In this document: in pieces, positions 30,001 through 56,408 of the stretch | Layout: each line of letters begins with the position of its first letter | How positions within the stretch are numbered: position 1 is the stretch's first letter | NCBI GenBank assembly: GCA_020341815.1 | Contig: CP070837.1 | Coordinates: 1,236,575-1,300,574 of the forward strand | From: Candidatus Omnitrophota bacterium | GTDB lineage: Bacteria; Omnitrophota; Gorgyraeia; JAFGHF01 | Reading direction: 5' to 3' | Length of the DNA: 64,000 bases | The notes under the pieces: model-generated | Seen by the model: only the letters and a program-made list of their open reading frames with translations | Databases searched by the model: none | Told to the model about the DNA's origin: nothing | Program-made: the position numbers and the translations under genes

Positions 30001-33000
30001 TTAAAGACGTATGGACTTAAGGTGCGATATCTGCCTCGGCATTTTCAAAATATATGTAACCATTATCCTCTTATCCTCTGCATAAGCAGGAAGGGGAAGG
30101 AAAAAGCTATTCTTAAAGAGGTGCGTACGATGGGAAAAGAAGGCAGGCCAATAGTAATACTTGCTCCATTTGTTGATGAAGTTCACAATCTTTCCGATCT
30201 GCTTAAGCATGAAGGCATTAAGCATCAGGTTATCGATGGCAGCAAGCCCGAAAAAGAGCCTTATTTAATATCCCAAGCAGGCCAGAAGGGACAAGTAACC
30301 ATAGGTATAATTAAGTTGGGATGGGGCACAGACTTTACTTTGTCGGAAGAAACAAGAGCATTAGGAGGTTTCCATATAATTATCCCGCCTTTGAGCTCTT
30401 GGCGAGCATATCAACAAGCCAGGGGGCGTGCGGGCCGACAGGACGATCCGGGAAGTACGCGGATAATTGCATCTATATGGGATGAACTTATCCAGATACT
30501 TGGAGGAGAAAATTTAAAGAAAATTCTTGAGAAGGTTAAAGACTTGCCTGAGGATGAGCCTATTGAAGATGAAGAAATAAGGGCTTTGTTTGAAAAAATC
30601 CTTCTTGAAATTGAGAAATATAACAAAGAGCACCGTGCTGAAATGTTAGAACAGGAGAAGCATTTTAAGCAACAAAGAGAATCGCTTTGCTCCTTAAGAA
30701 AGTTTATTCTTCACAATCCAAGGCTTAAGGCCAAGGAAAGAGAAGGCATATTGAAAGTATTGGATAGCAATTGGAGGAAATATTTAATCCGCCTGGAAGA
30801 ATTGAAGAGGGAACGATTGCTGGAAGATTTTGATTTGAGCAAATGTTTGGAGGATACACAATTTGCGGAAGTGATGGCCAGCGCCTTACTTAGTCAAATC
30901 GAATTTATCTATATTTTAAGGAAAAAATTCAATAAAAAATGGAAAGGAACCTTGACTTTCCCCTTTGAAGGAAAATTTTTAAGCGTTTTAATAGATATTA
31001 TTCAAAAAAGATACCATCATACTATAGAACATGAGGAATTACTTCAGGAGATAACAAAATCGAGGAGACCTCAAGAATTATCCGCACTTGATGATTTGAA
31101 AAGGCTATGGGATAGAGAAACAATAGAACCATATTCTTCAGAAGAAAGAAATTTAAGTTTGGACGATCGCAAAAATGAAATTTCAATTAGCATAATAAGA
31201 ATTAATTTTCCGGTTGGCGAAAGAGTTCTTTCTGCCATGGCAGTAAAGATTTATAAAGATGATAAGAAGACGAGAAAACTTTTGGGATATCTTATTAAGA
31301 TTCCCTATGGCATAAATACTTTTACAAAATATTGGCGCAAGCCAGAGGAGGGAGAATTATCTCATGTGGAATTTTATCCCCAAATAATAAAGGAAATATA
31401 CCGGATAAAAGAGAAAATGCCCCTTATAAAAAAGGCTATAGAAGATGTGGAAAAAGCAGAGTCGCCTATGAAAATCGACCCTATATTTAACCATATTAAA
31501 TATGCTGCAGAAATTATTGTAAAATCCCATATAGAACCAGATAGTAACGATGGAAAATTCATCAAATTCCTTTACGATTTATTGCTGAATGCCGAAAATA
31601 TTCCTTCATCAACGCAAGACCCTTTGATTCGATTGAAGAAAAAAAAGAGAATGGAACCATTGAAAGAACTTTTAAAGGATAGAAGCTTGGAAGATGTCGT
31701 GGCGGAAATGAGACGTAACAACTTGCTAAGATTAACTACCGATACCGAGAAGATTTTTTTAGCGCTTTATTATAGAAAATCAATAAGCGAAGCAATGCGA
31801 GATTATAATCGTTCCAGGGCGGCAATAAATAACATTTTCAGGAATTGGGAGAAGGCAATATCATCTTTTTTAATAAACATGGATCGTTTTTCCAATCTTC
31901 CGAAGATAAAAAGGAATTGTTTAAATGAAATTATTTCCAAAGGGATTATTTGCGTAAACGAACCGGATGATTTTTTGGATATTCATCACGATTTACTTAA
32001 AAATGTATGCAAAGTTTTAGATAAAATAGAAAAATATTTAGATATTTCAATCTTTAAAGGCGCAGAATTAAAGTTTGAGTATGGTTATTTGTCGATATTA
32101 ATAGACAATATAATTTTCACTCTTGATGCCCCCGGGTCTATCGATTCTATAGGTAAGCATTTTGTAAAATTATTTATCGATAAGAAGATTCCAGGGACAT
32201 CGCTAAAGCAATGGAAGGAGTTTATACAAAAAGCGGGATTTGAATATATAAGGGATGGCAAGCCGATTAAACCTACGGCTATAAGAGAAAAAACAATATA
32301 TAAAACTGAAGGATGGACAAATCTGGACTCGGGCCCTTGTAAAAAATTGAGAGATTTATTAAAAGAAATTCAAGATCCGTACAATTATTTAGTGGAAGCG
32401 TTATGGCTATTATTAAATAATCCGGATTTGGTAAATGAGAAAGATCCTATTTCTGTATTTATTCAAGAGGCTTTAGGGTTTGGCGCTGCTTCTATAGAAA
32501 GCTCATCGCCTATAGATAATGTATCTATAACAATAGAGATGAAGGATAGATTCACAAATGCAAAGCCAAAAAGAATAATTAATAAAAAATTTGCAAAAGA
32601 AATAATTGTTTTATTAATAGATGATCCTTGGATGAGATCAAGGGAAATAATGGAAAATTTGGTAAATGAATATTTTAGATTTCCGAAACAATTGTCCAGA
32701 AGAATAAAAACTACTTTTGGAAAGGATTTAGAAGTATTGAAGCGGGAATATCAGGTCAAATGGCTTGAGCATATGGATAAAGAAGCATTGACAATCTTAA
32801 ATGATTGCCCTTGCATGAGAGGTATGGAAGAGCTTAAGGAAAAGTTGGCAAAGCATATTCCTATCCTGGATAAGATGCCCATAAATACTTTTAGAGGAAG
32901 ATTGCGGTCAATTCCGAAATTACACGAAAAAGTATTATCATTGCTGAAGTCCGCTAGAAAACTCCGCAGCCTCTCCAGCCCGGCAAATATTTTTTATCAA

Positions 33001-36000
33001 AAACTTTTTTCTTTTTTAAGTAAAAAGAAAGACCTTTGGGTTGAAATAAAGCGGATATCCCGGACAAATAAACTTCCTAAGAATGGGATATATGGCTCTT
33101 CCAGGATAATTCAGTTAGGGACAGAAAGCCTAAATTCGGTTATAAAGCATTTTATGCTCTATCAGGGGTATGTAGTTCGAGGAAACATCAAGTATATTAA
33201 CGATGAGGCTTGTTTAAAGGGAATAAGCATTACAGACATACTTGATTATTTAAGCAAGATCGGCATTAAGGAAGTTCTGTTGCTTGTTAAAAATTGTGAG
33301 GGTGAAAAAGGAATTTTAATTCCGGAAGGCATGAAAGTTATTATCCCTTTAACTAATATTTCTGAAGTTTATTGTTCTATGGATAACATAGACTATCGGT
33401 TTATAGATGGTCATGATATAGAAGAGAGAAGCAAAAATTTGGAAAAAGCACTTAAAGAGAAGACAGAAATAAAGACTTGGATCAGCGAGCGCTATCTTGC
33501 CGGAGGTTGGAAGGTCATTGATAAGCGAGACAAAAAAGATAAAGCCTATTTATATACATGGGAAGATGTCCTCCCCAGGATAATAAAGCGGGCTCTTAGA
33601 AAAAAGATCGAATCTGAGCACGAGGAATCTTTTCAGAAGGCAACTCAAATAATAGTAGAATTTCATTTCGCAGGCTATTCTTCTCAATTGGGTAATATCT
33701 ATAGAAGAGATGCATATGATGAGAAGCTTATTCCGGAAGATAGGAAAATTAGATTAAAAAATAAAAGTAAAGATAAGGTTATAAAATATTTAGTTGAGAA
33801 AACCGGCAAATCTAAAAAATATTTTGAAAGGATGAAAGAAAAAGAGCTTCGTGAGCTTTCTATAATGATATGCGGTAAGAGTCATTTCAAGGAAAGACTT
33901 ATATTTGAGCTCTTAGCAGACAAGGCTAAGCTTAAGCTTAACTGTAAGGTGAGAATTATTACACAGTATCATGCTGAAGATTTTGAAATAGAAATTGATA
34001 AAAATGAATTATTTTCCTCCAGCCCGGCAGTAATAGAATTAGGGAAAACACAAAAGATAATGCAGAAATATCTTAGTAGGAAATTGGGGGCAGCAGTTTC
34101 CTCGCCAATGGAAAGGGATAAGTGCGTTCATTCAAGAGATAAAGCCTCACCGGCTACAAAAATACCTTCTCTAGCAGCTAATATCATACGCTTTATGCCG
34201 CGAAAGGATAAGGTGAGGGTAAGGCCTCCGGGGTCAATGACAAAGGCAATGGCATGGATAAAGGATAGCAATAAGCTTATCTATGACAGAATGTTAGAGA
34301 CCTTTATGTCGGAGATTCCCAGGAAATTATTGGGTGAATTTTTAGAGAAGTATTTAATCTCAGAACATCCCCTGCTTACTCCTTTGCAGAAGCAGGCGAT
34401 GAAGGGTTATTTGATTAAGGTAGTAGAGGCTCTTGGTGATAACATGCAGCTTGCCCAGCGGTTTGTTGTTTTGCGGAAAATAGATAACCCTGTGCTTAAT
34501 GTTAAAGATTTAGCAGATGAATTAGGGCAGACATCGCGCTGGGTGGAGAGCTTATTATATGGCGAAAGATATCCAGATTATTATTATCAGGGTTCATATG
34601 AGAAAATTATAAATTATATCCAGAGAAACGATGAGGGTATGTATCAGCTTATATTAAAATGTATGATCGATGATTTTATGAATAATATGTTTGTATTTCT
34701 ATTAAATGGCGGAAGTAAGGTAAAGAAAGAAGATATATCCAGAGATTTTAGAAAATATTTACATAAGGCTTTATCTAAAGCCGGTCTCGATAAGTCTCAA
34801 AAGAAATATTATGAATATTTGTTGAATAATCCATCCAGCAGTGAAAAAGATATTGCAAATGAATTAAATGTTTCTGAATCAACCGTAAATAATAATTTAA
34901 AAGGAAAAGACCATTATTATAAGGCAAGTGGATATAACTATCAGGCAACAAGCGCTGAGAAAGAATTAATAGATTTTATCGATAAGCAGTTGACGCCAAG
35001 ACAGGATACGGCATATCTTGAAAAATTAAAAAGGAAATTACACCAGAAAAGGGTGGCAAAAATAGCCGATAATATTCAAGGAATCGCAATTTATAGAGAA
35101 ACAATAAGTTATATATGTAGTTTTGCGAAAAAAGCAGACCTTGAAGATATATGGATGCTGGGTTATTCTTTGGCGAAAAAAGCCGTGAAGGATAAATGGA
35201 GCCTTAAGAAAATGATGTTTATGGTTTTTCTTATTGAGGAATTGTTGAATAATATGTTCGAAGAAGGCAATCGTCCTGAGGCAGCCGAAATTATTTGTAA
35301 ACAGGCAGGAAATAAAAGATTGTTTGATTTAACTAAGGAAGAAATGCACAGCTTAAATCGAAAATTAAAGGCATCTGGTGCGCATGTTATTAGACAGAAG
35401 AAAGCTTTTTTCTTTATCATGCCCGATTCGAGTGCAATAGAAATGTTAGTTAATATAATATTGAAGAATAAAAAGAGAGCTAAACAGGAAGCCAAGGAGC
35501 TATTGCAAGGATTAAGGAATAGAAGGAGATTAAAAAAATTCATTAGCAATCAAATGAATAATAAAGTGCGTTCTATTGGACTGCCGCAAGAGCCTGCCCT
35601 GCCCCGGAAAAGAGGAGATGAAGTTATCCTCAATCAGAAAAATGAAAGCGGGCAGCGCATAAAGATACAATATAACACAGAAGGCTCTTTGCGGATCTTT
35701 TATAAAAAAGGTGGCGAACAAAAAACGGGAATTATCAGCTTTATGAAGGAAGAAGAGAATAGCATAACTATAATGGTGGATTGTGATTTTTTCTTGGAGT
35801 CGGATATAATGACGGAACTTGTACTCTGGTTTTCCCGGTTGTTGTTGTCGAAACAGGAAAAGGGAAAATACATCGCTATGCTCTTTTCATTCACTGATCC
35901 CCCTGTAAATATCTTGTTATCTATACTTGAGAGATACGGGAGTGTCATAGGCTATTGGGACGGCAAGCGGTATCGCGGGAAAAGGGTTTGGAGGAGGATT

Positions 36001-39000
36001 GGAGATAGGACTCTTTCAATAAATTATCTTGGTTTGCGCGTCAAACCCACAAGAGAAAAAGTTTATGGCCCTAATATAAGAAAAACCAGGACACTTTCCT
36101 CTCCCGCAAAAGATGGTTCTAAGGATAAAAAAGTAAAATTTCTAAACTGTCCCGATACAATAAAACCGATTTCCGGTATTTTCTTAAGTGGGATAGAGCC
36201 GTCTGAGCAGAAAATGCAACAGCTTCTCCCTGCATCCGGCAATAGGGCAGAAAAAAGAATAAGGGGCGTGGCGGAAGTTGTTGGGGTGTTCTTAAGCAAG
36301 AATGAGGATACTTCTGATTCCGCCGCCTCGCCAATAGACTCAAGTAAAGAAAATAAATTAGATCTCGGAAAAATAGAGCCCTATATTGATTGTTTGGAAA
36401 ATATCATAAGATTAGCAGCAATGCTCCCTGATAGTAGAGAAGAAGGCTTTTATTCAATTATATTTTCTCTGAATTGCAATCTCAAAACATTAAAAGATAA
36501 TTTTGATGAAAATAGTATTCAAGATATAGAAAATTTATTTAAAAAATTATGGCAAAGTACAGTGCAGATATTGAAGGATAGAGCAAGAGAAGTTCACAAA
36601 AATTTAAATCCTAAAGAAATATATAAATTTGGCTGTATGATTAAAGAATTTGGGGTGCTTAAAGAAAGTTTATTTTTGGGCCAAGAGCCTATAAAATCGG
36701 TTTTAGAAATAGAACAAGAAATAGTAGAAAATATTTTAAAAAGATTGAAATACTATCTGAAGACAAAATTGATAGACTTAGATTTTAGAGATTCCAATCT
36801 TGATGAATGGAATAAATTTATAATGCAAAGAGCAACTTCTATAGAACTTCTGCAGGAAGATAAATGGAGAAAAGCATGGTCATCCGTTGATGGAAATAGG
36901 AACCGAGATTCCATCTCCTCGCCGATAAATCCGGGTTTGCCGCAGAGCGAGAAAGACATTCTTGAAATCATTTCCCACTTTATAATTACTGATAAAGAAA
37001 GCTTATCTGAATTGACAAAGGGTGTTAGCCAATTAATTTCTTCAAGACAAAAAGATTTTCTTGCTATTGAAAATAAGTTAAATATGGATAGCTCGGAAGA
37101 AATGATATCGGGCCTGCAAGATTTGCGTCTATTAATATTAGGAGATGTAATAAATACCAATAATATCAATTTTCTTGTTGAGTATGACAGAATAGATAAA
37201 AATCTTATAGGATATGTTGCGTTACCTGTATTTACATATATCTTTTTGCGTCTTTTATTAAAGCAAAAAAATGTATGGTGCTTTTGTGCACCGGAACATA
37301 TAGTTAATTTGATTTCTATTAATGAGTCAGAAGGCTTATTTGTAGATAGCTTTTTAGCAGAGTTTTTTGAGATAGACTTGCGTGAATATTATAGATGTCA
37401 GAATAAGCAGTTATCTTTAAAAATTGAATATATGCCTGAGAGCCAAAGGGCCTTAGGATTGCAAGATAAACTTAATCTGTTTTACAATCCTTTGAGATGG
37501 CAGATAGATATTCCCGCTTTAGTAGAAAAAATAAAGCATAATACCTTACGTATTAAGAGAGATAGCTTTTCTGTTTTCTATGTTCCTATTTTGGGAAAAA
37601 ATGGAAGAAAGGAAAAAATATTCGAAATATATCAGATAAGGTCCTCTGATGGGTTAGGAATAAAGTTGACAGAAAAGAAGATGGTAACAGAACTGTTATT
37701 GAAAGAGAAATTTTGCAAAGATGCAAAGTTGATTACTTTTCCCGTGGGGAGGGATGAGCAACTGCTTAATCGCAGAGAAGAGCTTTTTGAAGAGTCATGG
37801 GACAAACTGATGCACAGGTTTCCGATAAAAAGAGATAAGCCATTGCTTCCATGGGGCTTTTTAAGCAATATAAGAGGCATAAAAGAAGATGCTTCTAATT
37901 TTTATCTCAGTTCTCCGGCTACGGATGCCGTATTTAAAGCATTAATCAAAAATCCTTTTATTTCCAAAACAAAATTTAATTTTGCGGTCAGCTTGTCTGT
38001 TTTTAATCAGATGTGTGCGAAGGCTTTAGTAGAAAGAATAAAAATAATTTTAAGGGATGAACTGTTAGAAAATTTGCCTAATTTTACTCTGGATAATTTA
38101 TATGAGAAATTGCAAGAAATATACAGCTTAATCACAGATAAAAACTGTTTAGAAAATAATAAAAAGAAAAATAAATCTTTTATTGCACATATAGAGAAGA
38201 TGCTGAAATTAGCTAATACTTCCTGGATAAAAATAAAAAAAGAAATTATGCTAGAAAAAGCAAGACAATTATATCCTTTTGTTCAGCAAAAAGAGGAAAT
38301 CGCCAAAGAATTAAAGGACTTATATATAAAAGATAAAAATAAAGGGGTAGATTTTAGGAAAGCACTAAAAAGAAGGGTGAAGGGATTATTAAAAAATAAT
38401 CTCTGTATGCCCGAAAATAAAATAAGAGCTCAAATAGTGAAAGATTTAGGTGTGAGAAGAATTTATCGGCAGAGACTTTATGAATGGCTAGAGCCGTTGG
38501 GAGGTCTTAAGCATTTACGTGCTGAGGCGCTATATGAAATATTGGAAGAAATAACTGCAAAAAGACAACAAGAGCAAAAAGTCTTTACCCTGGATACATT
38601 TTTTTATATGTTTATTGTATTAGGATGGCTTGGCTTAGGTTCCGGCATAAGTAAAAACTTTTTCCGCAGAGAGATAAATGAGTTATTAGCCAGATTGGAT
38701 ACGTCTTTTGAAGAAACAGAGGCTGTTGCCTTTCTGAAGACGAAAGGAGTAGATTTAGAAAGTAGTATATTTAGGAGGCGGTCTAATGATGATCCCAGGC
38801 CAAGATGCACTTATCAAAGAGCATATAGAAGGTTGAAGCTGATTGAGAAAACATGGAATGAAGCGGATTGGCAGGGAGTAGAGCATGAGCCTTTTTCTGT
38901 AAAGGAGATAAACTTAAAATGGCTGGCACAATGTTCTCCCGAAAGACTTAAGCAGAAAGTATTAGAACGAATTCAGCAAAGAATAGAAGAAGCAAAGGCA

Positions 39001-42000
39001 GATGAGTATATTTTAGAGACTTTAATCAGCCACGGCGGCCATCAAGGGCAGGCAGCGTATGCATTGGGCCTGACCAGGTACCAGCTAAGCTGGCGATTAA
39101 AGCAAAACCCGTTTTTAAGAGGACTGATCGACCCCAAGAAAGTTATTGCAGAGAGCAATAGGCGGAAATGGAAAGAAAAGAAAATACACAAGGCATTAAC
39201 AGAGCTTATCTTAGGTATTGCCGCAGAGACAGAAGAAACATTTAAGGGTCAAAGCCCGGATGTGCTTATTTTGAAAGCAACAGATTTGGTATTGGATAGA
39301 TATAATAATATAAGAAAAGACAATCTTCAGTTTGCCTTAATGAAGACAAAAATAATTCTGGGCACGCTTAAATATGAAAAAGATCCTATTTTAAGAAAAA
39401 TAGTCCTTTTATTGGAAGACTTTATATGGCTTTGCCATCAGATTATAGCATTAAAAACTTTTACAAAAGCAGAAAACTCATTATTGCTGAAGAATTATAA
39501 GAAAGCAAAAGAATTATTTTCTGAAATTAGCGCGATTGCGCCTGAAGGAAGCGACTTTGCCGCGCGGGCGGTTGTGTCTATAAAACGATGTGATGACCTG
39601 ATATTGGCAGTATCGGAATTTACTGCGGCAAAAAGAATGATGAGGTGGCAACGATTGGAAGATTATCAATGTGCACTGGGAAACTTTATAAGAGGTATAA
39701 ACAGGATTGAGAGATATAAGGATGAGCCTTTGGAAGGGAGTATTATTTCCGAGGTATGGCAATATATAGATGAAATTATAGATGAGTCATCATCAATATA
39801 CTATAGGCTGGGTAAAAAGCTGATTTTAAATGAAGAGTTTGAAAGAGCAGAAGAAGTTTTCGAAGAAGCAATACTTCTATTTGCGCCGATTGTCAATATG
39901 CCGCAGGATACGACAATCATTGATAAAACAGAAGGACATAAAGATGCTTTTGCTGATTTGAAGAAAATAGCATCTATGCTTGCAGTCTCTAAGCAATTAA
40001 GGATAAATGGATGTTATGAAAGGGAAAGACTTTTATTGCAAAAAATTATTGATTATATAAGGAATGTAAGCGGAATGATTCTTACGGGTTTTTGTGCGGA
40101 TGTTGCCCAGCACCATATGAAAAAATGCGCAAAATCCATTTGGGCTAATTCCAATTGCAATAAAATAGATAGTAATAATTTTATTTCCAAAGAATCCTTT
40201 AAAGAAGAATTTTCTTTAGAAAAACTTAGAATTTATCGTATATTGCAGAAATTTTCTATAGAGAATAAAGTTATTTTAGAAAAGCTAAAAATAGATATCC
40301 TTGCTTTAATAAATATTATAATAAATCTTGAGCCGAAAATTAATGCGTGTCTGGAAGGTTTAGAGGACAGGAAAGACCTATATGCTTATATCAGAAAGGA
40401 ATTGAATTGGGCAAGGGAACGCGGATACCCTTTAGGGGCAATTATTGCTATTATTGATAACATTTTATTGGAGAGAAAAAAATGCTTTTTAGAAAAATTC
40501 GGGGGTGTCTCTGTTATCTCTTCTTTCGAAGGACGGCATATTTATGGCAGGGGAGGGTATCTTCATAAAATAGAGGCAGAAGAGGGAGGAGCAGTAATAT
40601 TTGACGAAAGAGGTTTTTTAACAGAGATTATTTTGACAGACGATAGATATAGGCCGATAGGGGTTATAAGAATTAAACGTCTGAATAATAATAATAACAC
40701 TAAAATTACTGCTGATTTTAGTGAATATGGGGATATGACTAAGACTAAGACTAAGGATAAGGTGTCGAGATATAAACTAAATTACTTAGTAGCCGCCTCG
40801 CCGGCTCACCGGCAGGAGGAAAATAGTGACACAGACCGCATATTTATAGGAAAAGCATTCTTGCGATGTTTTGATATTGGACTTGCGGGCCTTGTGAGTC
40901 TTATTTCTATCATTGGTTATACATATTTTTATACTAAATTTTATGCTCCCCAGGTAGATTTTTATAGCCATCTGAATGAAAATATATTCGGTTGGTTTCT
41001 TGTTATATTTATTTGTGTAGGATTGCATGAATTGGTGCATCGTTCAGCGATTAGATATTATAAATATAAGAAGAAACATCAGTTGGAATATAAATTTAAC
41101 TGGTTTAGTTTTAAAAAGGGCACATACTTTACTATAACTACTAAAAATAGAAAAATTATTAAAAAAATAGAAAAAAGAGGCAAGTATACTAGCCGGATAT
41201 TATTTGCATTTTTTGTTATTTCAGGAATTATATTACCGGGTTTCAATTTTGAGATAAAAATAACGGGTTTTATAATAACAATATTTAGAAAAATTCATTT
41301 ATCTTTGATGGGGTTAATAAAGTTGTTTTTTAGTTTTTCTTCAAAAGATATAGAAGAAATAAAAGAAGTAACTTATGAAGAATCACAGCAGATTATTATG
41401 CGAATGATTAGGCAATGTCAAGCGGCTTTAGAGAGGCTCATCGTAAAAAAACCTACAATGATTATGTGGGGCGGGAAAGGGCCTTGTGTAGGTAAAGGAT
41501 GGACAGCTCGTAATTTTAGTAATTATTACAATAAGCATAAAAAAGGTAAGAAAGGTCAATCTTATGTTATCAGAGGAGATAATAGTATATATCATTATAA
41601 AGACCGGCCACCCCCATCTAAGGTAGGTTATCCTGAGAATACCTTTGATATTGAAAGATTAGAAATAGTAGTAAAAAGCGCTGCTTCTTTAAAAGAAGTG
41701 CTTATGACTATTTATGACGATACATTTAGGATGCCTTTAGGGGTTTCGGAAGAAATGCTTGCAGAAGCTTTGAAGAATTGCCCTGTTATGCAAAAAGGAG
41801 GTTATGAATTATTGCTTCTGCCGGATGCTGTAAAAGATGTAGAATTGAAATATTTTTTACCCGAAGATTTCATTGATGAAATGATTGAAAAAGTTAAAAA
41901 TAATGGCGATGATGAGAAAATAATCGAGAAACAGATTAAAACTATAATTAATAGAAGCAATCAGCCTTTAAATAGTAGAAAATATTTAATTAGTCCGGCA

Positions 42001-45000
42001 GTTAAAATATATATTGATACGAGAACGGGATATTTAATACAAGGATTTAATTTTGCCAAGGAAGATACCGTAATAATTGAATTTGAACAAGCTTTGACTT
42101 TTGAGGATATAAGAAAATATGCGGATATTTGTGTGTTTGTATATGCAGAGCAACAAATTCAAAAAGATTTATTTATGGGAAGAAGAGAAAACGGGGAAAG
42201 ATACCCAGACCTTACTGAGGAACAAGCAAGAGAAAAATTTAAAGAATTATGTGCAAGGGTAAATGCCAATCCTCTATGTAGAGAAGGGGAACAACACGCA
42301 AATATTATTATTGTTAATACAGCTTATCTTGCCCGTAGTTTGCAGCATGAATTTGGTATCATGAATCCACATACATCTTCCCCGATAGTGAAAAAAGGGA
42401 ACGGTTCTAATTCTTTATCCGCCTCGCCGGTGGAAGGGGAAACATCCCATTCTCAAGATATTAAATTGAGCCAAAGAGAAATCGATTCTTTGATTCAAAA
42501 TTTAAGAACAGATAGTTATTATGAAGTATTTAAATATTATTGGAATAAATTTGCTATATACGGAGAAAAATGCCCTAAAGAACTTATCATAGTGAATAAG
42601 TTGAAGTATAGAATTTTATTGATATCTAATACCGTAGGTCTTCCGGAGTCACCGGAGGATACCTATGGGCGAATTTTAAAGTTTATTGAGTGTAAGATTA
42701 AAAAAGACCTTAATTCTTTAAAAGAAATTAGAGAAACATCGTTATCTTATGATGAATGGCCTCTCGAGCTTAAAAAAATAGTAAAACAAGTACAAAATTT
42801 TTTGTGCAAAATTTTTTGGGAAAGATACAAATTAAACGTTACAATAGATTTAGCACAAAAAATGCTGATAGATAATCAGTTTGGATCATATAATTACGAC
42901 ACTTCCCGTTTAATTGACAAATTTTTTGTGAGTTATGAAAAAGATATCGGCAATTTCATTGTTAAGATTATCCATGAGGCTTTACATGTTTATTTACCCT
43001 TTGGTTTTTTCGATATTTTTGATTTATTATTTTTAGAAGAAGGTTTTGTTTCTGAGGAGACAATTGCATTAGGTCAATTTTTTCAGCAACAAACCGATAT
43101 TCAAATAAAAGAGGATTCTCATCTTTTGAATAGAGAGGTTTATAATAAGATTGAGCGAAAGGTTGGACGAGATGCGGTTATGGAATTTATCCTTAGAGGG
43201 TCAAGAGATTTATTTCTTGATAGATTTGGAGAAAACAGCCATATTGTATTCGCTATCTTAAATTATCTACAGCATTTAGATAACATAAAATGGCCTGAAC
43301 GTATGGAGATAGCAAAGAATATTATAGACAATAGTTGTAATTTGCATGTGTTGAAGAATTTTATTATAAAGGAGAAGGAACAATATCTGTTAGATAAGAG
43401 ATTTGTTTGTAATGTCTGGAATGTCGTTAATAAAAGAGGGACTATTTTCAATCCAAATTTATTGTTATCCAATCCCATAAACGCCGCCGCTTCGCCGGTG
43501 GAAAAAAAAGTAACGGAGACAATCGCAGACTGTCTACAGAAAGGACATTTTGTAAGATTTGATACCATTGCAAAAATGACAGATGTCAAAGTCAATGAGG
43601 TTATGATTATTGCGTCAAAGAGATATCCCAGGCAAAATATAAAGGAAGATGGGATTTGCAGTAAGTCCTATCCGGGCGATAGAAGGGTATCTTCATATGA
43701 AAAATGGTATATAAATTATATTATAAAAAAAGAAGGAGGATGTCCACTAGAGATAGATAAATTTGTGAATCTGACAGAGGAAGGCTTTTATTTCGGGTTA
43801 AAAGAAAAAAATAAGGAACCTCATCAGGGCATCGAAGGTTTTTATGTAGATGGCAAATATCTAAAAGCCAAGAAGGTTTATTATATATCTTCCCCAGTGA
43901 ATAACGCTTTTGTGAAAAAAGGAAATGGTTCTACTTATTTATCCGCCTCGCCGGTGGATAAGTTGAGACCCCGCGCGTCAATCTCCCGATATATTTTAGA
44001 AGGAGAGGTAAACATAAGCCTTTTAAATTATAACTTTCTTATAACTCTTGCACCAGTCCTACCATTGCCATGTTTTGAACTTTACACATTACGCTTTGTG
44101 GATAGAGATGACAAATTCCAAAAGACAGCAGCCGAGATTGAAATATATATTCCTTTTGAAAGACAAGAAGAAATAGGACAAAAGAAAGAAATAGAGATTA
44201 GAGGGTTTGAGATAATGGCCCCTTATTTGCGGAAATCATTAGCTAAATATTTTCTCGTTGTATTTTTAGAAATTTTAGATAAGTATTCTCTTTTTAATAA
44301 TTGTAATTTTAAGAGAGTTAATATAGTGGGCCATCCTTTATTGGCCAAGGAATTACTGGAATTCGGCTTTGAACCTATTGATAAAGAAACACCAATATAT
44401 CTTGATATGGGAAAAACAGGAGAGCATATTTTCGTTTATATACCCAATGATAGTATAAAGGAGAGGCTTGTTTTACCTCCAAATAGTTGTATTAAGTTCC
44501 TTGAAGAAGAGCCCGGCGATAATTATATAAAATTATTTGTCGATACGCCTTATTATTTATCTAACAGCACCAAGATGGACGAGAGATATGAAACGCTTAT
44601 TAAAGAAATTAAGCTTTCTTCTATAGAAGAAGGTAAGGAATGCTTATCTTTTAAACTAAACTCTAAAAGGGAGCCTTATTTTGCAATACTTACTGTTTTA
44701 AGATGTTGGTTAGAAGAAATGGATATTTGTAACAGAAAACATTCTGAGGGGCTGCAACGTTATGCAGCACTAATTGCACAAGAGATGAGATTGAAACCTG
44801 AGGAATGTAAAGCAATGGTGATAGGGGCATTATTGCACGATATAGGTAAAAGAAATATCCCAGAAGAAATCCTTTTAAAGCCCGGAGAGCTCAATAAAGA
44901 AGAAGAAACTATAGTGCATGAGCATTGCGTGGAAGGCTTGGCAATGATTTTGGGAGAAAAAAACTTTGAGTGTATAATTCCCTTTATGACTACAAAATAT

Positions 45001-48000
45001 AAAATTAGAAAGCGCATATTTATATATAACCTTCTGCAAATAATTCATGATTGCATTTTGCATCATCATGAACGTTATGCAGGAGAAGGTTATCCTGCAG
45101 GAGGAAAAAGAGGTAAGGGCATTCCTTTGGCAGCACGAATTATAGCAGTTATAGATCACTTTCATACCTTAATTTCATTAAGGCCATTTAAGCAAGCATT
45201 ATCTTTGGAAGAAGCATTAGAAAAATTAAGGGAGGAAAAAGGTAAGAAGCTGGATCCGGATATAGTAGACCGTTTTATAGAAATTATTAAACAGACTGGA
45301 ATAATTGATTGCTGGGATACGGATATGTGGTGGAGGCCTCGCAGAAATACTAAAAGACATTCTTTAACAAAACTTTTCCATCCTGCGCATTTCCTAATGG
45401 ATGGCACTTCTGCTTCTCTTGTTTCCGCCTCGCCGGTATCTCATGATGTATATGCTGCGGCGGTACATATCCTTGGTTTAAACATAGGGGAGTTAACCAA
45501 AGAGACAGCATGCGAATTTCTTCTCAAATTTTTCCAAACAGAAGATGGAAACATTAGAGAAATAAGAGGTATTCTAAGTTTTAGGGATAAGGATAGCAAA
45601 GAAATAGAAATTACAGATCTAATAAAAGCTATAGAACAGACAGGCCTTGATTCTTTCTATCGTCTTCTGGTTAGGGATCTTGCTGCCATTACCGTGATTA
45701 ACAGTAGTGATAAACAAATAGAATTTTACAGGAAGTATGTCGTTCTGCTGAAATATTGGGAGACATCCTCAAAGGAGGATATAAAGAATGAATGTAAACA
45801 ATGTATGGATGAGATATGTAGGTATTATTTATCTAAAGAGGTACAAAGGCGAAGTGAGAAATTTAAATATGAACATTTTTCCTATCGTGTTCCAATTAAG
45901 GATGACTTGATAACACAGCTTTATGAGTCTTACGATGTTTTAGACGATTTAGTGAAGATGTTGTTTTTAGAGTATATTAAACGCACAAAGGAGTTTCCTC
46001 ATTTTGAGACACTTAGTGAAGAAGATATTAAAAACAAAACTTTAGTTATACTATTTTATCCTTGCGAAGAGAGAGAGCTAAATAGAGGAATTTTACCTCC
46101 CAATATTTTTTCTCTCGCTAACAGTATGGTGGCAGAAGATATCAATGTAGTTTTAGCGCCTATGCCGACCAGACTTGCAGAGAAAAACTTTGCCTATAGG
46201 TATTTAAATACAATAAATGCCTATTTAGATCTAAGAGATGTATATAGTGGCCATCCGGTTATGTATGCATGGATGAATATGCTTGTCGGCAGGTATATGC
46301 GAATTTTTAAACAGTTAGGTATGGAAGAAAAAGAAATCCGTATAAAGTTTAATTTTGGTGTATCAATGTTAGATTCTACTTATCCCGATGGCCTGGCTCT
46401 TAATGAGATGTTAAAGCAAAAATTCCCTGAGTCTAAGGTTTATGTAGGTGGGCCTACTGTATCAGCCGAGCCAGAATTGGCGTTTAAAGAAATGTTTGAA
46501 AAAGTTCCCCATAACCCAAATTTTTTGATAAATGGAGAAGCAGAGATTGTATTCCCCTATGTAGTGAAAACGTTAAATAATTGCAATGGGGCAGAAAAAT
46601 TGGAAGATTCTATTATTCAGAAATTATCCGGATGCCATGGTCTTGCGCTTAAGTTTGGCGGAAAGATATCTACTTTTAGATTTAAAGAAAAAAATATGAT
46701 CAATGAAGAAACGATGAATGGATTACCTTTCTTTCCGGAAATTATCGCTGATGATTCCGCAATTTATTATGTTCCTGAAAGGGGATGCCGACACAATTGT
46801 TTCTTTTGTGCGCGGATCACATCGCATAAAGTGCGTATGTCCAGCGCCGATAAAATATTAAGTGATTTAAGGATGATGGATAGAGCTATAGGAGAGTTTA
46901 GACAGACGCTTTTAAAGCGTATAAAAGATAAAGATATGCTGTGGCTATTTGAATTTCCTTTTAATGTTGAAGATAGAGTTTCGATTTTTGAAATTTCTCT
47001 AGTTTTGTTAAATATATTTGAGAATTTAGGAGAAAAAGGAGAAAACATAATCCCGAATAAGTATACCGAACTAATACAAAAATGGGACAGAGACGGAAAT
47101 ATTGAGAGAATAAAGCTATCTTACAAAAGAGCCGGTGATGATATATTTGAAAAATTACAAATTATTATAAATGAAACAGCCGTAAACTTTAGTATGCATG
47201 AGAAGGTGCATATTGATATTGATGATAATAGTTTTTTGCATGATAAGTTTATAGCGATAAAGGTGCTTAAGGATTTAATAGATAAACCTTTACAGCATAT
47301 CCGGGTTAAAAGATTCCAGGCTCATGTAAAAGATTTTAATACACCAACGGGAGAGCCCGATGAAGAAATTGCTGATGTTATAAGAGAAGTTCTTAATGAA
47401 GAGGATGAAGGAGTAATTTTGGGTCTAGAAAGTGGAAGCAACAGGGCTTTAGCCGATTGGTGCAAAGATTTTGATTGGGAATACGCCCGGCAGCGTATTT
47501 CCTGGCTCGATAAGAAAGTCAAGGTTTTTATAAATCTGATTATTTCAAGACTTGAAAGCAATCCTCAGGAAATTATTGAATCTCTAGGCAACATTGCATT
47601 ATTACTTTTAGATACAGAAAATGTAAAGATAACATATGTATCTTTTCTTATGCCTCTTCGTGGCTCATCAGCAGGTAAAAGATTTAACGAAAATAAGCAT
47701 AAAGGAATTAAACCTTTTAGATTTATGGATCGTTATTTAGAGAAACAAATATATTTCTATGAGTTTCCCGATGATGAGGTAGTGAGAAATGTTCTTCCAA
47801 GCAATTATGAAGATTTAGCTAATTGCATGTATTATATAAAAAGCAAGAAAGAAATCATAGCGACCTTTAAGAAAGTTATGACACTTTTAATGGAGGAAGC
47901 TAAGTTAACTCATCACAAGGATCTACGAAAGATAGAGAAGATATATTTTAAGAAGATACAGAGGCTTGAGCAATATTTAGCTAGCAGCCCTGTAGAGATT

Positions 48001-51000
48001 ATAGAGGAATGTCTTGTTAGTTCTGAAAACAGTTCGCCGGTGGATTCAAATAAAGAAAGTAAATTAGGCCTCGAAGTGCCTATTTTTGTGTATGGTATCT
48101 TGGATGGTGCTTTATCTATTGGAAACGTAGAACGATATTGTGATAAGTTGAAAATATTGTTAAAAGAAGATGAACGTATTGTTGAGGTGAAATTTGGCTA
48201 TGATGTGAATGACTACAAGTTTTCAAATTTTATAAAATTTTTCAAGGAGGCACAATCTCTTTCTCCGGAAGGCGCAATAATTTCTATTATGGGTAGGTGG
48301 TATGAACATTGCGTAAAAACTGCCTGTCAAAATGCAGCGGAATTGGCAGAGGATTCAAATTTCCCTATATTTATCATTCTTATTGAAACATATATAGAGA
48401 CTATGTTATCTCGATATTCATTGGCACAAAATAGAATAAAAAAGGGTTTAATTGAGATTGATAAAACTAAAGGAATAAATTTTATTGTTTTTGTTAATGA
48501 CGAAGTAAAAGAATGCAATCCACATATATATAAAGATAAAAACCCCATAATTATAGATATTTATTCAAACGAAAAACAATTTTCTTTGCATGATTTCCTT
48601 ATGAGAATTAAGGCATGGCGCGAGAAAGATCTTTATTGGCTAAGGCAAGAAAAAAAGCCTGAGTTTTTATCCGATGAGACGACCAAAGAATCTATTGAAA
48701 GTGCTGAATTTAATGCATTAGTTAAAGACCCTTTTATTTCCAAAACAAAATCAAACTTTAAAGGTAACTTATCTGTTTTTAAGCAGATGTGCGCGAAGGC
48801 TTTAGTAGAAAGGATAAAAATAGTTTTAAGGGGTGTGCCTTTAGAAAAACTGCCTAATTTTACTCTGGATGATTTATACGAGGAATTAAAAGAAATATAT
48901 AACTCAAATACAGATAAAGCAAATAATCGAAAGAAAAAAAATTCTTTCATTATACGCATAGAGAACATGCTGAAATTAGCCGATCCACCCGATACTTCCT
49001 GGATAAAAATAAAAAAAGAAATTATGCTAGAAAAAGCAAGACAATTATATCCTCCTGTTCGACAAAACAGGGAAATTATCAAACAATTAAATGACTTATT
49101 GCCTTATATAAAATATAAGAATGAAGGAGCAACTTTTAGGAAGATACTAAAAATAAGAGTAAAGGAATTGTTAAAAAATAACCCCTATATGCTCGAAAAT
49201 AAAATAAGAGCTCAAATAACAGAAGATTTATCTCTTCCGGAAAGGATTAGCCAGCAGAGATTTTATGAATGGTTAATACCGTTGGGCGGTCTTAAGCAAT
49301 TGCGCGCTGAGGCATTATATGAAATATTGGAAGAAATAACTGCAAAAAGACAAGAACAAGAAGCCTTTAGTCTGGATAGATTTTTTTATATATTTGCTGG
49401 ATTGGGATTGTTTGGCGAATATCATATAACTAAAAAAAATTTTCTTAAAAAGATAAATAATTTATTAATCAGATTAAATACATCTTTTGAAGAAACAGTA
49501 GGAAAAAATAATGTTTCCAACTCACCGATTGGAAAAGAGGTAGGGCCCGGGATTTCTTCACCGGTCAATAGAGCTGAAATTAAAAAGTTCCGGATAAGAA
49601 AAAGGCAGAGAAGAGCATTCCTGCATAACTTAGTTAAGAAGTTTCCTTGTCTTAAAGTTATATATTTGCTTGAAGATGAGAGGAAAGCCTTAGAGGTAAC
49701 AATAGATAGTTTCTTGAAGAAAATAGATATCTATCTATCAAAGCTCGAAAGCAATTTTAATAATTATAAAGTTGGGAAGGGAGAAGACAAGGAAAACAGT
49801 AAAGAATTAGTTAGGAATAACATTAAATCAATACTTGATAGTATAGACGATCATTTTGCCGATTGCCGGATTATAGAAGGTGTAGTTTTTACAACATTAG
49901 GCCATTTTTTAGCAAATAGTTTAATTGCTTTATCCGGAGCTTTGCATCTTAATGAAGAAGAAAAACAATTTTATCAGGATTTTACACAGATAATCTCACA
50001 ATTAAAATTATTAAAATCTGCTTCAGTAATTCTTGTAAAAGAATTTGGAACTATAAGACATATTGAATTAGATGCTACTGTTTCAGTTGATTCCTGCGGG
50101 AAAAGGATAGAAATACCGGGTGCCTATTCCAGCTTCACCACATATATCAGGCAACTTCCTTCTAAGTTTCTTCTGCGTAATATTTCTCCTAATCTTACTG
50201 TTAGAGCACTGGGGCAGTTGGGAAATATCTATTTAAATCCGCTGGAAAAGGATAAATTAACTCAATTTGCAGAAGATATGCGAGCTATTATAATTTGTAT
50301 TTATGAAAACTTAGCTTTAATCCATGCTCCCCCCGTGAAGAAGTCTAATGCCGAAACCTTCCCTATAATTTTCTGCAACCCAAGAAAATCCCCATCTTAC
50401 AATAAGAACCTTTCACTAAAATCAGCCAAGCAAGACCTGCCGTTGCTAAAAGCCGCCTTCTATCTACTTTCTCACAGAGATAAGTCTTATTTGAATTTTG
50501 GTTTGAAGACCATACTTGAGGCTCTGGAAGCTTACCGCTCAGAATCAACACAAGAAGACAGAATGCGCAGGCTGGTTAAGGTGCTTAAGGCCCGCACGGG
50601 TGGCAATATTCAAGCCGCCGCCTCGCCGGTTAATTTTGACTGCCAAAGTAGCAAAAATAGAACCGTCCCCTTTTCCTTGCAAGGGACTTGTGGTGAGCGA
50701 GCGAAAGTGAGTCGAACCACCGCCTCGCCGGTTTCTCCATTGACATTTAGTTCTAAAAAACAACTATTAACTACATACATGATGCTTTTATCTAGGCAAA
50801 TGGCTTTTAATCATTCCAAATCAGAATTATCACAACTAAAAGAGATTTGGAAAAAGTTCTTTAATAACTTAATAGTCAATATAAATAAACAAATTTTCAA
50901 TAAAGCATTTATACCTACTAAGCAATTTCTTGATAAATGCATCAAAATAGAATCCATCGATAGTTTAATAACTATGTTCTGTAATCGCCAATTAGTGCCT

Positions 51001-54000
51001 TTTCATGGTAAATACGCTTCCCATTATAGCTATGTAGATAATATTTTAGAGAAAATAAAAACAGCAAATAATTTTTCCGATACCTGTAAGATTATGTTTA
51101 TGTTTTCAGATAACCCAGAACATATCAGTTGCGTCTATATCGATTTTATCGAAATTAATTATTACTTTATGGAAATATTGACTGATGATGAATGGGCTGC
51201 GATTTGCACCCATGAATTAGCACATAAAAAGAAAAATCATTTTGAACAATTGTTAAAACTTAAATGTACACATAAAGGCGCTCTTACTAGAAATAGTGAA
51301 ACATGGAAGAATTTTATAAGAAAGATACAGATTGAAGCCGATAAATTTGGTTTGGAGTATGCAATAAAAGCAGGATATAGGCCTGAAGGAGCAGTTACTC
51401 TGTTAAAGAGAGACCTCGAATATTATCTAAGAAAAGAGGAATATCCCCAGTGGTTAATGAAAGATAGCATAGAGATAGAGTCTATACGTGTATTAAAAGA
51501 TAGAATCGAAGCTCTAAAGAAGCACCCTTCGTTATCTCATCTTGCCGCCTCGCCCGCCACAAAGCTTGGCGAGACTTCGTTGCTTCGCTCCAGCTTGCCG
51601 GTGGATTTAGTTAGCCGGTTCCCTTTGATGTTAATGAGACTGGAAGGATATGACTTCTTTTTGTTCATCAAAGGTAATTTTGAAGCGCGGAAAGATATCC
51701 ATCCTGCCCAAAAGGAGAGGTACTTCTTCTATAAGTGCCCAGGCAATGCGTATTTTAAGCCTGTATTTGCCAATAGTCAGATAAGCGGTTTTGAGGATGT
51801 AAGCAACCCCTCCTCCGGAAACACCTCTAATTTCATAAATTTTGTCAGAAGGAGTTTGCTTAAACCCCAGAGCCCTGCCCAGATTAAGGGGCAGCATAGT
51901 GATGTCTGCTCCAGAGTCAATATACATAGGAGTTTCTATTTTCTTTTGATTAACTTCAAGAATTACTGTGGCAATTGGGCGGAGGATTTTGCCCCAGTGC
52001 AAGGATGGCTGGCGTTCGTATTTAAAACGGATCATCTTTCGGTTATTAGAACGAGTAATCGTTGGTCAGGGACCTTGGCTACAAAGGGAATCTTATGGGG
52101 GTATTTTCTTCTTGCCGCCTTAAGCATTTCTTCAATATTGGTCCCCGTAGCCACAGGATTGCCCTCAATTATAACTACATATTGGTTAATAAGCTTATCT
52201 TTATTTAGCTTAATATATGCTTGTAAATTCTTATCCATTCTCTCTTTCTCCAAGAGCAAATATAACACACCGCCGACATTAAGTCAACAGAGAATTTTTT
52301 CAACTTTGTTAAGACCGGCAGGCAGGCATCGTTCATCGGTTGAAGATAAAATACTATCGACCAACGACCAACGACCATCGACTATCGAATCTGCCGTTTA
52401 CGCTGAGCAAGGCCGAAGTGCCTCGCCGGTGAAGGATGACCGGAACAAGATCGGCTATAGCCTTTATGATCGGGAGCTGCGCAGGTTGTATTTAAACCGC
52501 GGTTGCAGTTATATTAGTCCTAAGGACATTAGAGAGGAAAAGAATTTTTATGAAAAATGGAGAGAAAGCCAAAAAGTACCACGGATTGAAGACAATCAAA
52601 AACTCAGCTTAGTAAAGAGTACCTTGCTTCCAAGAGAATTAGGGGAATGGACTTTAGAGTTTCCCATTGGAACTCTTGACAGTTTTTCTGTAATTATTAG
52701 AGCATTTGGAGGAAATGTTGTAGCTGTTGTGGAAGATGAAAAAAGAAGAAAAACTTTAATAAAATACAATGAGAAATACGATAAGTCGATTGCGAAGTTA
52801 AAAGGAGGAGTTTTATACGATGTCCTTATAGGCCGAATTGATTCAGCGGAAATTGAACAAACTTTAAAAAAGATTATTCAAAAACAAGGTAAGTTCAAAA
52901 ATATAATTAATTTTGGGAGAAATTCAATAAATAGAGCTTTTGCTAATTGCGCAGATTTTAAATCATCTGGAGGATTCTATTGGTTTGATGTGCAATTTAA
53001 TCTGAAAAATTTTGAACTGGATTGCAGTAATAAATGGATAAGATTTATATTGAGATGGATATTCTGGAGGCATGGTTTCGGAGTTAAAGAACTTATTAAT
53101 TTGCCCAGTCCCAACATGCCTGATTTTCTGTATAAAGCCTGTCTTATTAGATTGAAGGATGATAAACCTAGTAAGACTGCAATAATTTCTTCTCCTGCAA
53201 GCAACCGAAAAGAAATTGATCCTTTGATTCAAGATTTAAGAGGTGACAGAAAAAATGATGGTTCTATTGCTCTCGCCTCGCCGGTGAGGATGAAAAATGA
53301 CTCTGGCCCCATTTTTACTACTTCCTCGCCTGTGAAACTAAGAAATCTTATTATAGGGATAATTGAGGCATCAAAAAAAAATAACAACGAAGACATATCG
53401 CATTATCGCAAGCTTATTTTAAAAGAAGCAAAAAGCAGACCTGCTGAGGTTTGCAATTTATTACGTACGGGCTTAGGGAGGCCAGAGATCGATAAAATCT
53501 ATTTAACAATAGCTGAATATTTTCGGCGTGATTATGAAGTCATCGGCTCTTTAGTAAAAACATTCGAAGGGGATAATAAAGATTCAATAGCATTCCTCTC
53601 CGCTCAAAAAATCCTTTTAGAAATAGCAGATTTTTCTATTAAAGGTTCTTTTGGCAGGGTTTTTATCGCAATTAGAAAAAGCTTACTTAAAAAATCATCA
53701 TCTCAGCTGGCTAGAGAATTTGTTTATGCGATGATAGAAAGAAAACATGGCAAATTAGTAAGAAGAATGATACCCATTTTTGGCGGTTCAGCTAAAACCA
53801 GAATTATTTTTGAAGATATCTTTTGGGAAAAATTCGAATTATGCGTTTTTCCTTTAGCATCTGCCTTGGGCGATAAAGTTAAAGATACCAGAAGATGCGT
53901 TAAAAATTTCTTTTTAAAGAAAGGAAAAGAATCAAGAGAATCGTATAAACTAATTAAATCGGAGCTGAATAAGGTTCAAAGGAGGTTTGGAAGATTTCCC

Positions 54001-56190: not shown

Positions 56191-56278
56191 GCATCAAAAC
56201 GTCCTTTACGACTTCCGGGTAGACTTCCGGGGACAGGTCACTTAATTCTGAATCGCAAGGACGGTTCTAATTCTTCCC

Positions 56279-56292
56279 CCGCCTCGCCGGTT
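56279..56292 (+). repeat. Linker-repeat copy located 3' of the giant-gene stop (non-coding context)
   Basis: cgcaaggacggttctaattcttcccccgcctcgccggtt compares with the in-frame copy at 42395-42432 (aaaaaagggaacggttctaattctttatccgcctcgccggtg) and with 43921-43956. Confidence 0.75.
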
Positions 56293-56408
56293 ACAGGAGA
56301 TACAGAAAAACGGTCGCTGTCCCTATTTTCTATAAAGGTATTCTTATTTCAGAAAGTCCCTATAAATAGGGATTAAGTGAAATGAGGTCTTTGGCTTCTT
56401 GCTACCTG

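Follow-up and report, generated by a model that had tools for sequence, protein, structure and literature searches.

A predicted retropepsin-like protease operon nested antisense in a motif-punctuated giant gene of Omnitrophota

Bacterial genes that overlap antisense, as seen in E. coli, Pseudomonas and Streptomyces, are small, young open reading frames (ORFs) lying opposite conserved genes. Among bacterial retropepsin-like proteases, Rickettsia APRc is a membrane-anchored enzyme. The Pseudomonas aeruginosa enzymes of this type are described as secreted (PMC12239564). Giant multi-enzyme genes form a described class in Omnitrophota (West-Roberts et al. 2023, Nielsen and Lui 2026), and the cleavage points of giant proteins are stated there to be unknown (West-Roberts et al. 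2023, bioRxiv 10.1101/2023.11.21.568195). The locus considered here brings these subjects together. It lies in a stretch of 64,000 nucleotides (nt) from a Candidatus Omnitrophota bacterium (GCA_020341815.1, contig CP070837.1, positions 1,236,575 to 1,300,574 of the forward strand), called the window below. A giant plus-strand ORF of this window harbors, on its opposite strand, a pair of genes termed cassette 2, which encode a small DUF5678 protein and a retropepsin-like aspartic protease. Cassette 2 is predicted to be a complete, functional two-gene operon, nested antisense in one spacer module between two copies of a junction motif, [AS]SP[AVI], that punctuates the giant gene. The nested arrangement is old and orientation-specific, and it is one of two independent instances in the same gene. 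The features of cassette 2 and its surroundings, with lengths in amino acids (aa), are as follows.

1..56190, plus strand: giant ORF, with no stop from window base 1, a first TTG at 25 and a stop codon at 56188-56190
51547..51558, plus strand: ASPA, the junction-motif copy that closes the cassette-2 spacer on the left
51552..51576: CTCGCC-N13-GGCGAG, a small inverted repeat that shares bases with the motif codons; on the minus strand it follows the protease stop by about 55 nt
51559..52419, plus strand: 287 codons of the giant frame, read through as a spacer that matches no family
51588-51602, plus strand: SSLPV, a degenerate motif copy
51631..52035, minus strand: retropepsin-like aspartic protease gene, 134 aa, supported by Pfam, fold model and the ratio of nonsynonymous to synonymous substitution rates (dN/dS); catalytic D-S-G-A at residues 40-43
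52032..52238, minus strand: DUF5678 small-protein gene, 68 aa from ATG 52238, supported by Pfam, homologue starts and purifying selection against the relative L009
52259..52287, minus strand: promoter-like site of sigma-70 type, TTGACT-17-TATATT, TG-extended, with boxes kept in L009
52420..52431, plus strand: ASPV, the junction-motif copy that closes the cassette-2 spacer on the right, DNA GCCTCGCCGGTG

A preliminary description of this DNA had reported two minus-strand ORFs, at 52032-52268 and 51631-52035, and assigned the second to the clan AA proteases; both ORFs are present, and the assignment is well founded. The product of 51631-52035 matches Asp_protease_2 (PF13650) with 28.2 bits against a cut-off of 24.3. 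Its AlphaFold2 model (pLDDT 91.1) shows a single-lobe retropepsin fold, and Foldseek matches it with probability 1.00 to the HIV-1/2 and SIV proteases (TM score 0.60-0.68 on target) and to Rickettsia APRc (5c9b). A PDB search by sequence returned no significant match, and the fold search was needed to find these relatives. The catalytic DSGA occupies residues 40-43, and the C-terminal hydrophobic-hydrophobic-Gly motif is present as LLLGR at 107-111. Across 30 aligned homologues, D40, S41, A43 and G110 are invariant, and G42 is kept in at least 90%. The cassette-2 protease itself is not on record in the gene collection searched. One protease of the embedded clade (P0003, 82% identity, on a 522-bp contig) has DSWAD in place of DSGAD at the catalytic motif; it would represent either a decaying copy or a sequencing error.

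The partner ORF at 52032-52268 matches the DUF5678 profile (PF18929) with 45.2 bits against a gathering threshold of 23.2, and it overlaps the protease start by 4 nt. The 78 aa first given for it, counted from GTG 52268, are most likely too many. GTG 52268 sits upstream of the predicted -10 box; ATG 52238, which yields 68 aa, matches the starts of all homologues and is preceded by a Shine-Dalgarno GGAG at 52248-52251. In the comparison with L009, the -35 and -10 boxes are kept while the sequence between them has changed, and similarity stops just upstream of the -35 box; the unit therefore consists of promoter, small gene and protease, about 660 bp in all. AT skew changes sign across cassette 2. 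Termination signals are less evident. The inverted repeat that the preliminary description noted in the left flank exists, but it folds no better than shuffled sequence (z = -0.95) and has no T-run. Hairpins 3' of the protease stops at five loci have GC-rich stems that overlap motif codons, with z from -0.2 to -2.0 and mostly no T-run, and no terminator is claimed for them.

The strongest sign of two-strand coding is codon choice. Protease codons coincide exactly with giant-frame codons (phase 0), and TTA, CTA and TCA are therefore forbidden in the protease; the DUF5678 gene is offset by 2, so the codon-phase alignment first ascribed to the cassette is exact for the protease and does not extend to its partner. 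A recount finds none of these three codons among the 135 of the protease, despite 14 Leu and 6 Ser, while the giant ORF itself uses them at 57.6 per 1000. Free-standing homologues at 65-69% identity carry 7-10 each, and 31 homologues with a GC content of at most 0.45 carry a mean of 5.3, with zero in 1 of the 31. Whole free-standing cassettes have at least 5 stops in each antisense frame; embedded cassettes have none in exactly one antisense frame and 11-22 in the other two. All seven embedded copies have an antisense frame with 0 stops. Given the amino-acid sequence and free-standing codon usage, an antisense frame without stops has a probability of about 5e-5, counting only the protease. The free-standing controls, the stop counts and this estimate support the earlier judgement that coincidence is unlikely, and on these data coincidence appears excluded as the source of the open giant frame opposite the cassette. 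The frame is kept open through synonymous recoding, with the protease avoiding TTA, CTA and TCA and the DUF5678 gene avoiding the equivalent cross-codon trinucleotides.

Selection can be read on each strand from two close embedded relatives, L009 (92% aa identity, run SRR22387764) and L010 (88%, ERZ1292638); neither contains a forbidden codon, and in both the antisense frame runs the length of the contig without a stop. By the Nei-Gojobori method, the protease frame has dN/dS of 0.04-0.05 at dS 0.9-2.0, and the giant frame over the same codons has dN/dS of 1.3-2.3; protein-level constraint therefore falls on the protease, and the giant frame has only to stay open. The DUF5678 gene compared with L009 has proportions of nonsynonymous and synonymous differences (pN and pS) of 0.05 and 0.39, respectively, and pS between embedded cassette-2 copies is 0.54-0.70. 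Both strands are thus selected at once. The cassette proteins are under strong purifying selection, and the giant frame over the cassette is free in its amino acids but remains stop-free through near-saturating synonymous change. The sense translation of 51547-52440 has no Pfam family match, and that of the wider region 50722-54120 has no homologue among 5.8 billion proteins.

The cassette occupies a defined position in a larger pattern. The giant ORF contains 59 copies of [AS]SP[AVI] against 0.9 expected, an enrichment of about 60-fold (maximum 4 in 200 shuffles); other frames have few copies of the motif, and the five ordinary ORFs examined downstream have none. Per 1000 aa, the giant ORF has 3.2 copies, and ORFs from unrelated loci (300 aa or longer) have 0.12. 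Selection acts on the motif at the peptide level, because its invariant Ser is encoded by all six Ser codons, AGC and AGT included. Pfam domains fall within the inter-motif modules, as with a TPR block at 8789-9192, which has motifs at 8772 and 9202 on either side. Alignments of duplicated modules start 7-16 aa past a motif, and in several paralogous pairs the start lies within 2-16 residues of one; motif-bounded modules appear to be the unit of internal duplication. The motif copies are candidate module junctions or cleavage sites.

At every locus, a motif brackets the cassette on both sides, and cassette plus promoter fill the whole inter-motif interval. The gaps to the brackets range over all loci from 2 to 72 nt on one side and from 75 to 193 nt on the other, and are 72 and 181 nt for cassette 2. 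The flanking ASPV repeats of the preliminary description are real (ASPA at 51547, ASPV at 52420); they belong to the general punctuation of the giant ORF and are not cassette-specific. The brackets do differ in dialect between the two cassettes of the gene: SSPV surrounds cassette 1 and ASPA/ASPV surrounds cassette 2, and in loci seen with cassette 1 only, 22 of 23 motifs are SSPx. The same motif enrichment is found in the giant ORFs of two relatives of cassette 1, L082 (11 copies) and L085 (10 copies).

Several observations concern the DNA and the peptide of the motif. A GC-rich 14-mer, CCGCCTCGCCGGTG, occurs with at most 2 mismatches in 11 plus-strand copies between 40793 and 56292, all in the last third of the gene (0.04 expected); its recurrence suggests recent module accretion or recombination at motif-coding DNA. 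Beyond the TAA stop of the giant ORF, at 56188-56350, the same frame runs for about 60 codons and contains a double motif, NSSPASPVTGD, at about 56270-56300. This looks like a further junction that has been cut off, or like a role of the repeat as DNA beyond the ORF. Near Omnitrophota giant genes, a conserved Rotamase_2 peptidyl-prolyl isomerase gene has been described (West-Roberts et al. 2023), and a Ser-Pro junction motif would be a natural target for an enzyme of this type.

The giant ORF encodes at least 18,721 aa (more than 56,000 bases) at 37% GC. Pfam domains in its frame include B12-binding with radical SAM, HEAT, CxxCxxCC, ROK, TPR, SecA-DEAD/PP_bind/P-loop and HD (HD_5). Downstream of it lie SBP_bac_1/8 and two BPD_transp_1 permeases, forming a sugar-type ABC importer, and a glycoside hydrolase (Glyco_hydro_2_C). 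A length of at least 10,000 aa, many distinct enzyme domains, a divergent SecA-DEAD and adjoining carbohydrate import genes are the marks of the Omnitrophota "multi-enzyme metabolic cluster" giant genes (West-Roberts et al. 2023, Nielsen and Lui 2026), and from its sequence the ORF is assigned to this class. The nearest named relatives of both cassettes are from Omnitrophota metagenome-assembled genomes; the window contains no marker gene. Scans of the whole window for tRNA and Rfam families gave no match.

An exhaustive HMMER search with the SecA-like module, aimed at sister giants independent of the cassette, gave top matches (P0121, P0122) without the motif, and hence no unbiased sample. 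Internally, the giant protein contains paralogous modules of 27-68% identity: aa 4324-4759 with 5651-6512, 12629-13590 with 16003-16510, 12101-12297 with 18520-18721, 525-663 with 664-1090, and 8478-8771 with 10827-10983. A GC-rich island at 50400-50800 reaches 52% GC against about 30% in its flanks and contains two ASPV motifs, separated by only 34 codons, together with several short ORFs on either strand; it has no Rfam or tRNA match and may be the relic of another insertion. Hydrophobicity is also affected by the nested genes. Of the 17 strongly hydrophobic 19-mers in the giant ORF, 3 come from the peptides read through opposite the two cassettes (51559-52419 and 5449-6204, sense), and the two transmembrane-like stretches in the cassette-2 spacer are by-products of the coding on the other strand. 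Segments of this kind could inflate the numbers of transmembrane helices reported for giant proteins.

The second nested pair, cassette 1, lies at about 10% of the giant ORF length, cassette 2 at about 92%. Its features are the following.

5437..5448, plus strand: SSPV, closing the cassette-1 spacer on the left at 14 nt from the protease stop, with the hairpin GGGCAGTTCGCCC formed by its codons
5463..5855, minus strand: retropepsin-like protease gene, 130 aa, with D-T-G-A (Pfam gag-asp_proteas, E = 7e-15)
5848..6093, minus strand: small-protein gene, 81 aa, with AGGAGG before its ATG and a stop that overlaps the protease start
6137..6165, minus strand: promoter-like site TTGACT-17-TATAAA upstream of the small gene, with similar elements before the L085 and L082 cassettes
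6205..6216, plus strand: SSPV, right bracket of the cassette-1 spacer

The cassette-1 protease matches PF13975 with 55.9 bits against a cut-off of 28.2, and it is only 22% identical to the protease of cassette 2; the two cassettes are independent, as first proposed. The claim that they share the same architecture holds for gene order and size. Their small partners are not detectably homologous: an hhalign comparison, made with shallow alignments, gives a probability of 0.2%, and the cassette-1 small protein matches no Pfam family, DUF5678 included. It is nevertheless conserved in L082, L084, L085 and L086. A profile scan of the window, L082, L084 and L085 in all six frames found only the known cassettes.

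The closest relatives of cassette 1 (72-76% identity; L082/L083, L085 and L086) are embedded in the same way. In L082/L083 (GCA_964364455.1, Hainich groundwater, 52% GC) the frame is open over the entire 15.9-kb locus with 11 motifs, and in L085 (Omnitrophota GCA_049324655.1, 47.5% GC) over the entire 9.9-kb contig with 10. In L086 the antisense frame is open over nearly the whole contig, with a stop about 130 codons past the cassette, and the brackets are ASSPV and SSSPV. The giant ORFs of these relatives carry other domains, namely LpxR, uridine kinase (PRK) and methyltransferase in L082 and alpha-amylase in L085; by BLASTP, the cassette read-through is the only region that the window's giant protein shares with those of L082 and L085, or that these two share with each other. 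Cassette 1 compared with L082 gives pN of 0.15-0.17 and pS of 0.83-0.86, with synonymous sites saturated, and each cassette-1 copy is nearer in GC to its own host than the other copy is. Relatives occur in the Hainich wells H14, H51 and H52, and giant genes suited to comparison lie on CAYIMR010000002.1 (82 kb) and JBMONJ010000100.1.

A more distant relative, L084 (JGI 3300020833, Ga0206995_1001, positions 1-1100; 58% identity to cassette 1), faces, in convergent orientation, two minus-strand ORFs, one of 1756 aa and one of more than 1256 aa. These large neighbors lack the motif, and a Peptidase_S26 gene adjoins. Opposite the entire cassette its antisense frame has 263 open codons, with a stop at either end; L084 may represent an unfused or recently broken state.

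Most members of the protease family are not nested. The family has more than 400 homologues, and where their context was read, the typical arrangement is a free-standing DUF5678 and protease pair with a 4-nt overlap, which is the free-standing form of the two-gene module that the preliminary description had suggested looking for. Their neighbors include HicB, PIN and AbiEii genes, and the spread of the family is patchy across Omnitrophota, the Candidate Phyla Radiation, DPANN and WOR-3. The type-2 embedded copies are a small tip (at least 82-92% identity) of a large and mainly free-standing family: all homologues checked at 70% identity or less are free-standing, and scans of GTDB and JGI with the protease gave only free-standing relatives, at 64% identity or less. 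Both proteases match candidate-defence B models of PADLOC, PDC-M08B and PDC-M52B (E = 1e-7 and 7e-12).

On this basis, a mechanism can be proposed in which the cassette is a long-term passenger. It would derive from an abundant family of small free-standing modules, toxin-antitoxin-like or candidates for defence, and, having become fixed in the giant gene, would be expressed from a promoter of its own that fires against the direction of the giant transcript. Translation of the small gene and the protease would be coupled, the protease would act as a homodimer, and the small partner probably modulates it. Ribosomes on the giant mRNA would read through the opposite strand and produce a filler peptide of about 290 aa with arbitrary sequence, which would be tolerated as a separate bead with [AS]SP[AVI] at either end. 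Only the antisense orientation keeps both the cassette's own stops and the giant frame open, which explains why both cassettes lie antisense.

Some readings of the locus can be set aside with considerable assurance. A real domain on the sense strand, with the antisense ORFs as its spurious shadows, has a negligible probability, even though long open stretches are common opposite coding sequence. This reading is refuted from both sides: the sense strand has neither family match nor homologue and evolves at dN/dS of at least 1.3, and the antisense ORFs match curated families with hundreds of homologues, a retropepsin fold and strongly constrained dN/dS; what the preliminary description had named as grounds for rejecting the cassette, a conserved sense domain, was looked for and the antisense ORFs proved to be the real genes. 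The same description saw in the cassettes a recurrent mobile or invertible module. Recurrence stands, with further embedded copies in L009, L010, L082/L083, L085 and L086, and both the non-alignable flanks of these loci and the patchy family distribution would suit an element that transposes into the giant gene or toggles it as a phase-variation switch. Inversion, though, is contradicted by the stop codons: the inverted cassette would place 6-19 of them in any giant-gene reading frame. Flanking repeats of both cassettes, inverted or direct, are at chance level (10-18 nt) and none brackets a cassette; no terminal repeats, recombinase or transposase were found in the cassette; IMG/VR viral contigs contain no relatives and PLSDB plasmids none above 35% identity. 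The invertible and recently mobile readings are therefore unsupported. The large synonymous differences between copies of either cassette, and the closeness of cassette-1 copies to their own host GC, also speak against recent movement, and a mobile or invertible element is very improbable. An RNA-level role is somewhat less remote but still improbable: convergent transcription, or an RNA duplex of about 700 nt, would throttle the giant transcript or have it cleaved in the manner of RNase III, with the proteins secondary. The strong, conserved promoter-like site facing giant-gene transcription and the placement of cassettes near both ends of the ORF agree with this, and a possible cutting of giant transcripts into smaller ones has been raised in the literature; strong purifying selection on both proteins and intact catalytic residues do not, as a role of RNA alone would need neither.

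The serious choice lies between the passenger and a dedicated maturation protease. If the giant ORF encodes a polyprotein, the nested enzyme might cut it at the [AS]SP[AVI] junctions, for example between S and P with A/V/I at P2', the small partner possibly restraining it; encoded antisense in its own substrate gene, it would always be co-inherited and yet have its own promoter. Such genes would then encode true bacterial polyproteins, from which motif cleavage releases some 60 ordinary-sized proteins and in which protease clades are matched to the SSP and ASP dialects. This is tentatively entertained and considered doubtful rather than probable. Much of the pattern fits it: the motif's excess, its selection as a peptide and its position where Pfam domains and duplicated modules begin or end; three giant ORFs, unrelated in cargo (the window, L082 and L085), that have only motif and cassette in common; two divergent cassettes in one gene, both with retropepsins; dialects that track cassette type; and no C39 or S8 peptidase domain in the giant sense frame at E < 1e-4. 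Retropepsins are also the classic processors of polyproteins. In addition, Pro occupies P1' in type-1 retroviral sites, and APRc has a preference for A/V/I at P2' (PMC4140852). Against it, Ser at P1 is atypical for retropepsins, and APRc disfavors Pro at P1/P1' (PMC4140852). Most of the family stands free, beside toxin-antitoxin or defence genes and in genomes that lack giants of this kind, and L084 adjoins large ORFs without the motif. The association of motif and cassette is ascertainment-biased, because the related giant ORFs were found through the protease search, and the protease is no part of the polyprotein, being on the opposite strand with its own promoter and start. The passenger reading is rated most likely, with a chance approaching or reaching one half, because the family is abundant and normally free-standing, the proteases match PADLOC models and embedded type 2 is only a small tip. 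It has its own difficulties. Neither small partner matches any PADLOC model; it does not explain why both nested modules share a protease type; cassette-1-type proteases of at least 72% identity are embedded in motif-punctuated giant ORFs in 4 of 4 loci read; the cassette is the only alignable region among the three giant ORFs compared by BLASTP; and the first insertion of a cassette with at least 5 antisense stops, without truncating downstream translation, is left unexplained. Taken as a whole, the nested antisense operon together with its passenger role is as apt to be right as wrong.

The locus provides an unusually clean natural case of two-strand coding, in which the cost is visible as forbidden synonymous codons and selection can be measured strand by strand. 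It bears on a question stated in the giant-gene literature, namely whether the product remains one chain or is cut, and where: the motif offers candidate cut sites and the nested retropepsin a candidate enzyme. If the polyprotein reading were true, it would bring a retrovirus-like processing logic into cellular gene organization and give the first cleavage map for giant bacterial proteins. There is also a practical warning, since gene callers suppress nested genes and filler adds spurious "transmembrane" segments to giant-protein annotations.

The known systems each share part of this arrangement. Free-standing DUF5678 and retropepsin pairs (PF18929 with PF13650/PF13975; PDC-M08/PDC-M52) have the same genes in the same order with the same 4-nt overlap and the same sizes (64-70 aa and 131-136 aa), and their proteases are 58-70% identical to that of cassette 2. 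They differ in being intergenic, among toxin-antitoxin and defence genes, with 5-12 TTA/CTA/TCA codons and stops in all antisense frames; cassette 2 is nested in a giant ORF and recoded, with one antisense frame open. Literature searches found nothing on DUF5678 function, retropepsin-type antitoxin systems or antisense genes in Omnitrophota. The Omnitrophota multi-enzyme giants resemble the host gene in length (more than 10,000 aa), in their SecA-DEAD, radical SAM, ROK, HD, HEAT and TPR domains, in the adjoining sugar ABC importer and glycoside hydrolase, and in unique sequence without close homologues; the public catalogue of Omnitrophota ORFs of at least 10,000 aa lists 5,761 proteins (Nielsen and Lui 2026). 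A term search of the main texts of the two papers on them (West-Roberts et al. 2023; Nielsen and Lui 2026, bioRxiv 10.64898/2026.06.07.730766) found no antisense or nested genes; neither a junction motif nor a retropepsin is described there, and "motif" occurs once, in a reference title.

Rickettsia APRc (PMC4140852, PDB 5c9b), the Pseudomonas aeruginosa enzymes and HIV-1 protease share the single-lobe fold and D-[ST]-G-A with the protease described here, which is only about 20% identical to the characterized bacterial retropepsin-like proteases. Unlike APRc and the Pseudomonas enzymes, it has about 130 aa and a small partner in the same predicted operon. Gag-Pol polyproteins offer a likeness in their multi-module product, in a recurring junction peptide with Pro followed by an aliphatic residue and in a retropepsin-fold protease within the gene region; here, in contrast, the protease is encoded on the opposite strand, outside the polyprotein, and the predicted P1 residue is Ser, not aromatic. 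With antisense overlapping genes the locus shares the reading of one DNA on opposite strands and a codon choice limited by the partner frame. Their polarity is reversed, however: the nested genes here are old, conserved and assigned to families, and the host frame is unconstrained filler. What is new relative to known antisense overlaps is that a whole conserved operon is nested, that the host frame is the unconstrained partner, and that the arrangement recurs across genomes.

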